The notes beneath the pieces were generated by a model. That model made no database searches and was not told the origin of the DNA. It saw only the letters and a list, made by a program, of their open reading frames with translations. DNA of 64,000 nt, from positions 131,675 to 195,674 of the forward strand of contig JAMJTW010000014.1 in NCBI GenBank assembly GCA_024281175.1. Reading direction: 5' to 3'. Position 1 is the stretch's first letter; each line of letters opens with the position of its first letter. The position numbers and the translations under genes were made by a program. This document shows, one piece after another, positions 23,959-34,068 of the stretch. Origin of the DNA: Candidatus Thiovulum imperiosus. GTDB taxonomy: Bacteria; Campylobacterota; Campylobacteria; Campylobacterales; Thiovulaceae.

Positions 23959-25002
23959 TTACACAGGAGTCGGTTTTCCAAAATAGAAACCTTGAACAAA
24001 ATCAACTCCAATACTTTTGAGAGTTTTAAACTCTTCAATTCTCTCTATTCCTTCAGCTAGAACCTTAATTCCATTGCTGTTTGCTATATCATAAAGAGCT
24101 TTATAAACAGATTTTTTCATTGGACTTTTATCTATTTCTGAAATTATATTTCTATCAATTTTAATAATATCAGGTTTCATATCAATAAGAAGATTTAAAT
24201 TTGAATACCCCTCACCAACATCATCAAGAGCAATTTTAAATCCCTGCTTTTTATAGAAATTTAAGATTTTTTGTAGATGTTTCTGGTCTTTTACAAGTTC
24301 TGTTTCAATAACTTCAAAAATGATATTTGAGAAATTCAAATTTAGTTTTTTTGCAATTCCCATTGTTGTCTGCAAACAGAACTCTGGGTCATAAATTGCT
24401 GTTGGCATAAAATTTATAAATATCTTCTTCTCTATTTTTGAATTTGATGCACTCTGTAAAGCTGTCTCTCTGCAAACTCTATCAACCATAAAATTTAAAT
24501 CATTTCGAGCAGTCTTCTCAAAAAACTCATTTGGATACATGATAGAGCCATCAGATTTTATACCTCTAATTAGAGCTTCGTATCCAAATAGAGTGTCACT
24601 CTCTACTTCTAAAATAGGTTGGAAATAGGAGGTTAGATTTCTCTTTTCCAAAATATCAAAGAACTCCCTATCTTCAACATGATTTAAAAATATCTCAAGT
24701 GATTTTGAAAAGAGAACTGAACGATAATTCAGTTTCTCATTTTCTGTTTCAATAAATAGTTTTATAACCTCCTGCTCTATTTGACTAAAACACTCCTTGA
24801 ATTCTTTAAAAAAGTTTTGAAGAAACTGTTCTGGATTTTTACAAGAAATTTTTATAAGGTCATCTGTTTCACTATAAGCTATTTCTAATTTAGAAAAACA
24901 TCTCTCTATTTTCTTTTTGATTTCATCAAATTCTGAAATAAAATATATAGCACTACTTTTTCTTGGTAAATTTAAATATGGGTTGCATTTTTGACATGAC
25001 AT
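23959..25002 (-). CDS. EAL-domain c-di-GMP phosphodiesterase with an uncharacterised N-terminal domain
   Basis: YFQPI...GYEALIRG, FINFMP, FEVIE, ALDDVGEGYS, IKID, AEGIE, QGFYF. The catalytic set appears complete. Confidence 0.85.
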   Translation of the reverse strand: MSCQKCNPYLNLPRKSSAIYFISEFDEIKKKIERCFSKLEIAYSETDDLIKISCKNPEQFLQNFFKEFKECFSQIEQEVIKLFIETENEKLNYRSVLFSKSLEIFLNHVEDREFFDILEKRNLTSYFQPILEVESDTLFGYEALIRGIKSDGSIMYPNEFFEKTARNDLNFMVDRVCRETALQSASNSKIEKKIFINFMPTAIYDPEFCLQTTMGIAKKLNLNFSNIIFEVIETELVKDQKHLQKILNFYKKQGFKIALDDVGEGYSNLNLLIDMKPDIIKIDRNIISEIDKSPMKKSVYKALYDIANSNGIKVLAEGIERIEEFKTLKSIGVDFVQGFYFGKPTPV

Positions 25003-31387: not shown

Positions 31388-31639
31388 TTGGTAGATTTAA
31401 AAATAGACTCTGATACAAAAAGAATTTATGCTGAATTTATGTTGAAAGGCGAAGTGGATAAGTTGGTTTTAGATATAAGAAAGTATCAAATTGTAGAAGA
31501 GAATGGTGAAACATTTGTGGAGATTTCAGAACTTGAAACAAACCGAGAGTGGCTAAATATCGTTTTTAAAAACTTTCTTCCAACAAATCGAATTCCAATT
31601 CCTGAAAGATTTGTACCTCTTTTAGAGATATCTCTATAA
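31388..31639 (+). CDS. Small hypothetical protein (TTG start)
   Basis: ORF only. Compact spacing after purH and a terminator immediately downstream. Confidence 0.4.
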   Translation: MVDLKIDSDTKRIYAEFMLKGEVDKLVLDIRKYQIVEENGETFVEISELETNREWLNIVFKNFLPTNRIPIPERFVPLLEISL

Positions 31640-31672: not shown

Positions 31673-32713
31673 CTATTTAAAGATAAGTCCATTTAACCAA
31701 CTTGCCACTTTTTTGAAAGAAGCATTCTTATTTCCATCTTCATTAGAGAGTCTATTTTTAAATTGAGTTTCAAACCCTAAGTGATAAATACCATCTGCTA
31801 TTTTGTTTATAGCATTTTTTCCAAAGAGTTTCCTTTTTGCACCATCATTTTGAACTAAATGAAAACCTGTCTCTTCTCCAACCTCATCATCTCCATGTAG
31901 TTCTGCCCACTCTGTGGCGTAATTTGTAGAGAGATAGGAGTTCAATTCTCTAATTTCATCAGCTACGATTTCACCATCATTTGTAACTCCAGTAGCATAA
32001 ATTGCTTCCAGAAGAATTTTATTCATCTCATCAGCACTTTTTGCTCCCTCTCTAATATCTCCTGTTGATACTCTCTTTTGAAGTCCAACATCTGTATAGA
32101 TGATTTCGATAATATCATCTAATCCAGTATTAGTTGAACCTGTCACCTCAACAACACTACTATTTGAGAGAGACTCTAAATCATCTATAAGAAGAGAATT
32201 TAGCCAATTTGCTACCTTTTTAAAAGATGCATTTTTATTATCATCTTCATTTAAAAGTCTATTTTTTCGGTGAGTCTCAAAACCTAAGTGATAGATACTA
32301 TCTGCAACTCTATTTATCGCATTTTTTCCAAAAAGTTTTGTTCTTGCTCCATTATTTTGGACAAGATGAAAACCACTCTCTACACCATCTTCATCATCTC
32401 CATGTAGAGTTTTCCACTCTTCTGAGTAGTTTGTATAAATGAAATTATTTATCTCTCTAGCATCAGAAGTAGAAATCTCTTTATCATTTGCAAGTCCATT
32501 CTCAAAAATAGCTTCAAGAATGATAGAGTTCATTCTATCAGCAGAGTAGATAGCCTCTTCTATCGCATCTCCAGTAACTCTACTGTTGAGTGTGCTATCT
32601 GTATCGATAATTTCAATAATTTTGTCTAGTCCTGTTCCAGTTTCTGCTGAAAGAGTAGAAGATAAAAGAAGCGATGCTGTTGTAACTGATAGTATAAATT
32701 TCGAATTTTTCAC
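31673..32713 (-). CDS. Secreted protein made of two tandem repeats of about 160 aa, function unknown
   Basis: Signal peptide (GTG start). Repeat 1 TGLDKIIEIIDTD...GFHLVQNNGARTKLFGKNAINRVADSIYHLGFETHRKNRL...NKNASFKKVANWLNSL versus repeat 2 TGLDDIIEIIYTD...GFHLVQNDGAKRKLFGKNAINKIADGIYHLGFETQFKNRL...NKNASFKKVASWLNGL. Confidence 0.7.
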   Translation of the reverse strand: MKNSKFILSVTTASLLLSSTLSAETGTGLDKIIEIIDTDSTLNSRVTGDAIEEAIYSADRMNSIILEAIFENGLANDKEISTSDAREINNFIYTNYSEEWKTLHGDDEDGVESGFHLVQNNGARTKLFGKNAINRVADSIYHLGFETHRKNRLLNEDDNKNASFKKVANWLNSLLIDDLESLSNSSVVEVTGSTNTGLDDIIEIIYTDVGLQKRVSTGDIREGAKSADEMNKILLEAIYATGVTNDGEIVADEIRELNSYLSTNYATEWAELHGDDEVGEETGFHLVQNDGAKRKLFGKNAINKIADGIYHLGFETQFKNRLSNEDGNKNASFKKVASWLNGLIFK

Positions 32714-32734: not shown

Positions 32735-32826
32735 TTGGCAAACCTGTTAAGAAGTTCAACGCAACTTGGCAATCTCATTGAGACCCATAGCTTTCCGTCC
32801 TTGCTTCACAACAAGTTTGGCATCTA
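32735..32826 (-). promoter_or_regulatory. Candidate c-di-GMP-I (GEMM-I) riboswitch in the 5' leader of the 31673-32713 gene
   Basis: Minus strand reads UGCCAAA-CUUGUU-GUGA-AGCAAG-GACGGAAAGC-UAUGGGUCUC... This parallels the Vc2 aptamer as I remember it (GGGCAAA-CCAUUC-GAAA-GAGUGG-GACGCAAAGCC-UCCGG). The 3' segment GGUUUGCC can pair either with the 5' GCCAAAC or with the RBS region AAAGGGCAAAUC-GUG. Confidence 0.45.
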
Positions 32827-32844
32827 AAATAGATATCGGCAGTA

Positions 32845-34068
32845 TTACATTTTAAGTAAAGTCTTGTAAATTTTTAAATGTTTCTCTTTAAATTTATCTT
32901 GAGAGAACTCTTTAGCCTTCTCTTTTCCAGCTCTGGAGAATTTAAAGAAGTCAGTAAGTTCACCATACTTTACTGGAGGAAGCCAAGGTAACTTCATTCT
33001 TTTAAGTCTCTCTTGAAGAACCTCATCACCAATTAGAGCATCAACTTTTTTCTCAAGGTCATCTAAGTTATTAGACTCAAAAAGATACCCATTTTTTCCA
33101 TGAGTTATAAGTTCTCTAACTCCATCTATATTTGGAGCAATTATCGGTTTTCCAAGTTCTAACATATCAACTATTGTTGCACCCAACGCCTCTTTTTTAG
33201 AAGTTACAAGAAAAGCATCAAAATATTCAATATGCTCTTCAATATTCATAATATACTCTTGCATTTTAAAATTGAAAAGGTGTCTTGTTCTCTCTTGAAT
33301 TATCGCATCTTGTGGACCTTCTCCAATTAGAACAAATTGAATTTCAGGATTTTTCTTCACATAACGATATGCCAAATCTACGGCAAGTTCAAAGTTTTTT
33401 ACTGGAAGAAGTTTACCAACCATTCCAATAATTACAGTATGATTAAAAGGATTTCTAAAGAAGTTTGACTCACCCTTATTGATTTCATGAATATAGAAAG
33501 AGGGTGTGTTGTGTATAGTTACAAACTTGTCTCTAAGTTTTCTATGCCAATCTTTCATAAAATTATGTTGATAGTCTGAAACTGTAATTATCTTTTCAGC
33601 TTCTTCAAAACCTCTTTTTAAAAATTTTTCAAAAGTTCTATATAGAAATGTGTTGGGAGGTTCAGGTTTATGGAAAGTTATTACATAAGGAGTGCTAAAT
33701 TTATGCTTTATGTAATAAGCGATAAAAATTGCCTTAATTGAGTGTGCATGTAAAATATCACAACTTTTAAACTTTTCCAAACACTCTTTTTGCAATAGAG
33801 AATAGGGTACTATTTTTGCGAACTCTATCACTTCCAATTTTCCCTCTTTAATTACATGTTCCACATTGTCATATAAATTCATGTTCATCTGAAACATCAT
33901 AATCATCTCTGGAGAGACTTTTGGATTATTTTTAAATCTATTTTTCTTCTTATTTCTGTAAAAAAGTTTCTGTTGGATATTCTCTTCAGAGAGTTTTCTT
34001 ATAAGTATCTCCATCTGTTTTTCAGGAGCATTGTAATATCTTGACAAGTTTACATGACAGATTGTCAT
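32845..34068 (-). CDS. Glycosyltransferase family 4 (GT-B fold)
   Basis: C-terminal EALGATIVDMLELGKPIIAPNIDGVRELITHGKNGYLF (E-x7-E-like GT4 motif). Confidence 0.8.
   Translation of the reverse strand: MTICHVNLSRYYNAPEKQMEILIRKLSEENIQQKLFYRNKKKNRFKNNPKVSPEMIMMFQMNMNLYDNVEHVIKEGKLEVIEFAKIVPYSLLQKECLEKFKSCDILHAHSIKAIFIAYYIKHKFSTPYVITFHKPEPPNTFLYRTFEKFLKRGFEEAEKIITVSDYQHNFMKDWHRKLRDKFVTIHNTPSFYIHEINKGESNFFRNPFNHTVIIGMVGKLLPVKNFELAVDLAYRYVKKNPEIQFVLIGEGPQDAIIQERTRHLFNFKMQEYIMNIEEHIEYFDAFLVTSKKEALGATIVDMLELGKPIIAPNIDGVRELITHGKNGYLFESNNLDDLEKKVDALIGDEVLQERLKRMKLPWLPPVKYGELTDFFKFSRAGKEKAKEFSQDKFKEKHLKIYKTLLKM

Follow-up and report, generated by a model that had tools for sequence, protein, structure and literature searches.

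A type II c-di-GMP-I riboswitch upstream of an exported repeat-protein gene in Candidatus Thiovulum imperiosus, with a predicted translational OFF switch

Introduction

The type example of Rfam family RF01051, the c-di-GMP-I or GEMM-I riboswitches, is Vc2 from Vibrio cholerae, which contacts its ligand through G20, A47 and C92 (PMC11218506). Aptamers of type I combine a GNRA tetraloop with a tetraloop receptor, whereas those of type II have a GYRA loop and no receptor (PMC11218506). Vc2 is of type I, and its GAAA loop docks with an 11-nt receptor that is part of the second hairpin. For Bc1, a type I c-di-GMP-I riboswitch from Bacillus thuringiensis, SHAPE-MaP experiments found that, with c-di-GMP present, a stem traps both the ribosome-binding site and the start codon; its 220-nt expression platform holds two terminators and exerts dual transcriptional and translational control (PMC11218506). 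Also close is the c-di-GMP-I-GGC variant (RF03167), which has a short second hairpin that lacks the receptor.

Here we analyze a 64,000-nt stretch of the Candidatus Thiovulum imperiosus assembly (the window), in which an earlier note, made from the sequence alone, had proposed a candidate GEMM riboswitch with an alternative helix that sequesters the ribosome-binding site. Stem names follow PMC11218506: P1 closes the aptamer, P2 is the hairpin with the tetraloop, and P3 is the second hairpin. Like Vc2, the RNA in the window has two hairpins, a CAAA junction, a tetraloop of the GNRA family and a GACG.AAAGC strand; it also shares the three ligand-contacting nucleotides, and the gene whose 5' leader it occupies encodes an exported protein. 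Unlike Vc2, it is of type II: its tetraloop reads GUGA, the receptor is deleted, and the second hairpin ends in a 3-nt loop. The first junction pair, moreover, is C:G rather than G:C, and P1 is weak. The ligand-dependent masking of a translation start described for Bc1 is what we propose for this leader as well, but here the platform is 44 nt long, has no terminator and uses a single switch strand. Our literature searches found no description of a GEMM-I riboswitch in Thiovulum or in Campylobacterota.

Results

When the whole window was scanned against all 4227 Rfam families at their gathering thresholds, RF01051 matched on the minus strand over its full length (model positions 1-87 of 87), with 55.5 bits against a gathering score of 35 and an E-value of 4e-8. 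None of the other families, c-di-GMP-II (RF01786) included, reached its gathering score in the window. The match is the only GEMM-I copy in the 2.2-Mb assembly of 36 contigs (E 3.2e-10), and none was present in 14 control genomes. The minus-strand leader quoted in the earlier note agrees letter for letter with nucleotides 32845-32700, and its proposal of a GEMM riboswitch is borne out by the covariance score. The interval it gave, 32735-32826, does take in the switch strand GGUUUGCC, but the aptamer starts 5 nt earlier than this, and the Shine-Dalgarno (SD) sequence AAAGGG, the sequestered segment GGCAAAUC and the GUG start all lie outside. Judged by sequence, the matching segment is almost certainly a real c-di-GMP aptamer. 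The features of the locus are collected in Table 1.

Table 1. Features of the riboswitch locus, in window coordinates
Feature	Position	Strand	Basis or remark
c-di-GMP-I (GEMM-I) aptamer	32757..32831	-	full-length RF01051 match
G equivalent to Vc2 G20	32821	-	conserved unpaired G before the GC pair, Rfam consensus alignment
Junction pair, 5' side, CC	32820-32819	-	Rfam alignment, coordinate check
Junction AAA	32818-32816	-	Rfam alignment
P2 tetraloop hairpin, CUUGUU-GUGA-AGCAAG, GYRA-type loop	32800..32815	-	5/6 pairs covary in 16 related aptamers
Junction pair, 3' side, GG (of GACGG)	32796-32795	-	Rfam alignment, coordinate check
A equivalent to Vc2 A47 (intercalating adenine)	32794	-	first A after GACGG, Rfam alignment
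P3 second hairpin, short: 12 pairs, 3-nt loop, no 11-nt tetraloop receptor	32763..32792	-	Rfam alignment
C equivalent to Vc2 C92	32761	-	conserved C in the 3' tail gCC of RF01051
Predicted anti-aptamer strand CUUCUUAACAGGUUUG, pairing with CAAACUUGUUG (11 bp) and GAAG of the aptamer	32739..32754	-	unconstrained minimum free energy (MFE) folds
Predicted switch strand GGUUUGCC (anti-SD), common to the anti-aptamer and sequestrator helices	32737..32744	-	folds, shuffles
SD sequence AAAGGG	32725-32720	-	coordinate check
Predicted sequestered segment GGCAAAUC, between/overlapping SD and start	32721-32714	-	P(unpaired) <=0.02, aptamer enforced
GUG start	32713-32711	-	
Putatively regulated gene: 346-aa exported protein, GUG start, signal peptide, two ~160-aa repeats	31673..32713	-	
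Promoter-like hexamers, TTTAAA-18-TAAAAT and TTTACA-18-AATACT with TG	32841..32878	-	within the 3' end of the GT4 gene upstream

All 20 consensus pairs of the aptamer are canonical or G-U, and the equivalents of G20, A47 and C92 are all present in the Rfam alignment. Because the loop reads GUGA, a GYRA sequence, and the alignment lacks the part of the model that contains the receptor, the aptamer belongs to type II. By its sequence, then, the RNA is a type II GEMM-I aptamer with a canonical pocket, predicted to bind c-di-GMP, and a further member of a well-known class.

The fold is also supported by its relatives. In 16 aptamers found upstream of homologous genes, compared over the 20 pairs of the Rfam-derived structure, 99.7% of the cells are standard pairs, and both sides have changed in 12 of the 20 pairs. 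The covariation score of 0.529 compares with 0.194 in shuffled alignments and was reached by none of 500 shuffles; sliding the partners by 1-3 columns brought it to 0.215 or less. The covariation among homologous leaders that the earlier note had called for is therefore strong. It had further suggested that the two departures from Vc2, G to C before CAAAC and C to G in GACGC, compensate for each other, and these positions indeed form a true Rfam consensus pair, which is C:G in 11 of the related aptamers and G:C in 5.

An EAL gene reported in the window was confirmed (PF00563, 187.8 bits, at ~23971-24654 on the minus strand); it is an open frame of 355 aa and lies 8 kb from the riboswitch. Across the genome, 18 GGDEF and 7 EAL domain hits suggest that the host can both make and degrade c-di-GMP.

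The N-terminus of the protein encoded downstream, read from the GUG start, aligns with the MK.Q.KFIS of its relatives. The protein has no match in Pfam or NCBIfam; at least 472 homologues were found at E<=0.001. An AlphaFold2 model built from a 63-sequence alignment is confident (pLDDT 92.1, pTM 0.84); Foldseek found no neighbour for it in the PDB (best E 4.3, TM <=0.17), and a sequence search of the PDB found no relative. The invariant residues, H104-G-D-D-E, H116, D138, H142 and N-E-D157 together with their equivalents in the second repeat, suggest that the family binds metal through His, Asp and Glu. Some homologues carry Tat-type signals, and some are fused to RTX calcium-binding repeats or to a Spherulin4 domain, which fits an extracellular role. 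The family is widespread, with one, two or three repeats, in Campylobacterota, Thiotrichales, Burkholderiales, Planctomycetota, Gracilibacteria and Rhodobacteraceae. Between purH and this gene, and convergent with it, lies an 83-aa ORF (31388-31639, plus strand) that has no Pfam or NCBIfam match and that gene calling recovers on all strain-identical contigs.

A single-protein query found no relative, but a profile search with the alignment of the protein gave 78 named genome loci. At 12 of these 78 loci, Rfam scans at the gathering score placed a GEMM-I aptamer directly before the homologous gene and on its coding strand; a regular-expression screen for the aptamer core, which returned 7 true loci, was an undercount. 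Three of the loci carry two aptamers each (L051, L066 and L068), and the others are L073, L074, L078, L083, L086, L092, L095, L099 and L104. Together they span Campylobacterota, Gammaproteobacteria (Thiosulfatimonas, Thiomicrospira, Methylococcaceae) and Betaproteobacteria (Rhodoferax, Aalborgicola), and their aptamers fall into two lineages: A, to which the window's belongs (CCAAAC-CUUGUU-GUGA...), and B (GGCAC-CCUUGG-GUAA...). Ten homologous loci, the closest of those that lack an aptamer, yielded neither a diverged aptamer nor another leader RNA at an Rfam E-value of 1 or below, so riboswitch control of the family appears recurrent but optional.

The exact 5' half of the window's aptamer occurs 101 times in metagenomes (L134-L228). 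Among 100 first ORFs behind this aptamer subtype, the family of the window's protein is the most frequent, with 25; two lipoprotein families account for 23 and 15, and a PAS-domain protein for 5. The downstream genes of the subtype may thus make up a regulon of exported proteins.

Within the order, to which records of Nitratiruptor, Sulfurimonas and Sulfurovum belong, GEMM-I aptamers are present in 48 of 301 genomes and the protein in 11 of the 301; the taxonomic family from which the window comes has five further genomes, and these have neither. The best matches of the protein, at 65-69% identity, come from Thiotrichaceae and Campylobacterales MAGs. Riboswitch and gene are thus missing in near relatives but present in distant sulfur bacteria, a pattern that fits their joint horizontal acquisition. 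An empty-site comparison found synteny around or downstream of purH conserved in none of the five family members.

Homologous leaders from marine sulfur bacteria (L051, L066, L068, L078, L209 and others) share with the window a near-identical aptamer 5' half, CCAAACUUGUUGYGAARCAAGGACGGAAAGC, as well as the type II architecture and the exported repeat-protein target. They differ from it in that many have tandem double aptamers where the window has one, and in their platforms, which are 74-100 nt or longer: a hairpin or terminator comes first, and after it a conserved anti-SD, ACUUCCUU, that pairs with an AAGGA SD. The window's platform is compact and private: its strings occur in none of the 101 metagenome leaders that share the aptamer 5' half, and it is identical in six Logan contigs that encode the same protein.

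Further features of these leaders deserve mention. The pairing of ACUUCCUU to an AAGGA SD between aptamer and start is seen in L051, L066, L150, L209, L223, L154, L136 and others. An AAGGA also occurs within the aptamer (in GCAAGGACGG), so that a decoy logic like the window's is conceivable; thermodynamic modelling did not show one. Enforcing the aptamer left SD accessibility essentially as in the free ensembles of the relatives, because their free MFE fold usually already holds the aptamer together with a constitutive anti-SD:SD hairpin, and the relatives therefore give no prior on the direction of control. Tandem aptamers lie 70-120 nt apart (L051:2157-2410, L066:14-288, L068:2150-2393, L154 and L209; ~360 nt in L198), and the window's single aptamer, whether kept or gained, is most like the gene-proximal copy of such pairs. 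In L086 (~750-1580) and L179, 45 nt from the 5' flank and 5' half of the aptamer (UACUUUAAAUCGCCAAACUUGUUGUGAAGCAAGGACGGAAAGCUU) recur ~743 nt upstream of an intact aptamer; the two copies bracket a segment with a 170-aa ORF, which looks like an insertion into the riboswitch or a duplication across it.

From the end of the Rfam match to the GUG start there are 44 nt, and the folds predicted for this short leader are of two kinds. In unconstrained ViennaRNA folds, CAAACUUGUUG of the aptamer pairs with UUAACAGGUUUG over 11 bp and GAAG with CUUC, so that P2 and the junction are lost and P3 is kept. With the aptamer enforced, GGUUUGCC always pairs with GGCAAAUC across a 15-nt loop, an 8-bp hairpin worth -9.4 kcal/mol by itself, and two G of AAAGGG and the whole spacer have an unpaired probability of at most 0.02. 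The sequestering helix proposed in the earlier note is thus reproduced in the model. Mean accessibility over positions -14 to -4 falls from 0.81 in the free ensemble to 0.51 with the aptamer enforced; the masking of the SD is partial, its AAAG alone being unpaired in both states.

The two states lie ~3-5 kcal/mol apart, and where the transcript begins decides which of them is predicted to be favoured. Starting at 32831, the anti-aptamer state is predicted at -30.0 and the aptamer state at -27.2 kcal/mol; starting at 32845, the values are -35.8 and -30.7 kcal/mol. With a 5' end at 32838 the anti-aptamer fold is not the MFE, and the fold with aptamer and sequestrator is (-31.1 kcal/mol). In transcripts that include UGCC (32841-32838), GGGC of the SD is predicted to be paired in the ligand-free state too. 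A gap of this size could be well within reach of tight ligand binding. Promoter-like hexamers in the region number three sites, with 5.0 expected from shuffles, and are not significant; no terminator-like site was found in the leader.

The complementarities themselves exceed chance. When the 37-nt linker was shuffled 5000 times with its dinucleotide content kept, its duplex with the aptamer 5' half (-17.5 kcal/mol) was matched by 19 shuffles, its duplex with the SD region (-12.2 kcal/mol) by 54, and the two together by none. The dual complementarity of GGUUUGCC noticed earlier is thus real on both sides, but the reading of its GCCAAAC partner as the strand that closes the aptamer fails: the CC of that strand has its partner in the GG of GACGG, and its AAA forms the conserved junction. 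Since the pairing extends to an 11-bp helix that uses up the 5' strand of P2, it makes an anti-aptamer, and the layout would accordingly be that of a three-strand OFF switch rather than of one that closes P1.

Discussion

Our analysis suggests the following mechanism. The two genes that flank the aptamer, one for a GT4 glycosyltransferase and the other for the exported protein, are 131 nt apart, and the aptamer would control the latter in cis. Without ligand, UUAACAGGUUUG would invade the tetraloop hairpin and pair with CAAACUUGUUG; this anti-aptamer state would destroy the aptamer, leave the SD region largely open and allow the gene to be translated. Bound c-di-GMP would lock the aptamer and set GGUUUGCC free to pair with GGCAAAUC, covering two G of AAAGGG and the whole spacer up to -1, so that initiation is blocked and translation is OFF. 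The 5' strand of the aptamer, GCCAAAC, would in effect mimic the ribosome-site segment GGGCAAAUC. We consider cis-control of the downstream gene very likely and lean towards translational repression by c-di-GMP in the manner described, inferring the level and the OFF direction of control from the predicted folds; the account as a whole, from aptamer through cis-control to OFF switch, is probably the right one. A stronger version, which we offer only tentatively, is that of a minimal switch that works by invasion of P2 and not by competition for P1, of which little is left here, and in which GCCAAAC acts as a decoy of GGGCAAAUC for one 8-nt strand; the gene it shuts off at high c-di-GMP would be the founding example of a widespread exported family whose confidently predicted fold has no neighbour in the PDB, the commonest family behind this aptamer subtype in marine sulfur-oxidising bacteria.

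The alternative that survives best, though we find it less likely, is that the aptamer binds c-di-GMP with a different output: the gene may be turned ON, or control may act through transcription, Rho-dependent termination or mRNA stability. Both directions exist among c-di-GMP-I switches, Vc1 being an ON and Cd1 an OFF switch. Some relatives, for example L068 and L150, have terminator-like hairpins right after the aptamer, and in some, L154 among them, such a hairpin overlaps the 3' strand of P1 and would give ligand-dependent antitermination; the window itself has no such element, and leaves only 44 nt for one between aptamer and start. The partial and 5'-end-dependent masking predicted for the SD would also sit well with another output. 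However, none of the computed folds opens the SD further once the aptamer has formed, and the dual complementarity of GGUUUGCC, which is beyond chance, fits the logic of an OFF switch.

It is very unlikely, in our judgement, that the aptamer is a decaying relic, recognizable in sequence but no longer binding or switching. Such a view would rest on a truncated second hairpin and on P1, a stem outside the RF01051 model. In the register of the relatives, whose P1 stems are of the UUUG:CAAA type and 4-6 bp long, the window gives only two Watson-Crick pairs, and the alternative (U.G, A-U and G.U with one mismatch) is weak too; its 55.5 bits are moreover the lowest score among lineage-A aptamers upstream of this family (57.5-68.3 bits for the others). 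Several relatives, however, have a P1 that is equally weak, and type II aptamers normally combine a GYRA loop with a short second hairpin that lacks the receptor (PMC11218506), an architecture common to all lineage-A relatives. All 20 consensus pairs and the three ligand-contact nucleotides are intact, and the complementarity of the linker to both its partners is non-random.

Still less probable is a different ligand class, that is, an aptamer for another cyclic dinucleotide (3'3'-cGAMP, as in GEMM-Ib) or a c-di-GMP-I-GGC variant. The suggestion arises since RF03167 is the best model for some relatives, outranking RF01051 and exceeding its own gathering score of 59 in L066:14-92 (68.3), L051:2157-2235 (62.7) and L074:2338-2415 (63.8). 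The best clan match of the window is nevertheless RF01051, and the position that distinguishes RF03167 (GACGC-G-AA as against GACGC-A-AA) is an A both in the window, which reads GACGG-A-AA, and in the cross-hitting relatives. With a consensus G where the window has the canonical A47, RF03167 does not include this RNA; the cross-hits are due to the short P3 without a receptor that both have in common, and not to a variant pocket. Clan competition can thus mislabel receptor-less type II GEMM-I aptamers with a canonical A47 as GGC variants. Selectivity for cGAMP in GEMM-Ib reportedly goes with an A at position 20, and membership in that group was rejected as well, the window having a G there. Finally, a chance resemblance without function, for which nothing speaks beyond the AT-rich, low-complexity flanks, can be set aside as negligible against E-values of 4e-8 in the window and 3.2e-10 in the genome, the empty control genomes, and the repeated, covarying occurrence upstream of homologous genes.

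Returning to the translational OFF switch that we favour, the RNA itself is no discovery: it belongs to a familiar class, and every annotation pipeline built on Rfam would pick it up. The points of interest are modest: it is the sole copy of its class, and the lone c-di-GMP riboswitch, in a genome with all the GGDEF and EAL domains counted above; the 5' strand of its aptamer appears to mimic a segment of the ribosome site; and it is linked to an exported family. Its 44-nt platform, in which a single strand would be exchanged, could serve as a small, clean model for translational control by type II GEMM-I riboswitches. Above all, the riboswitch provides a functional handle, in that it would tie an unstudied, widespread family of exported proteins, with a predicted fold that has no match, to c-di-GMP signalling.
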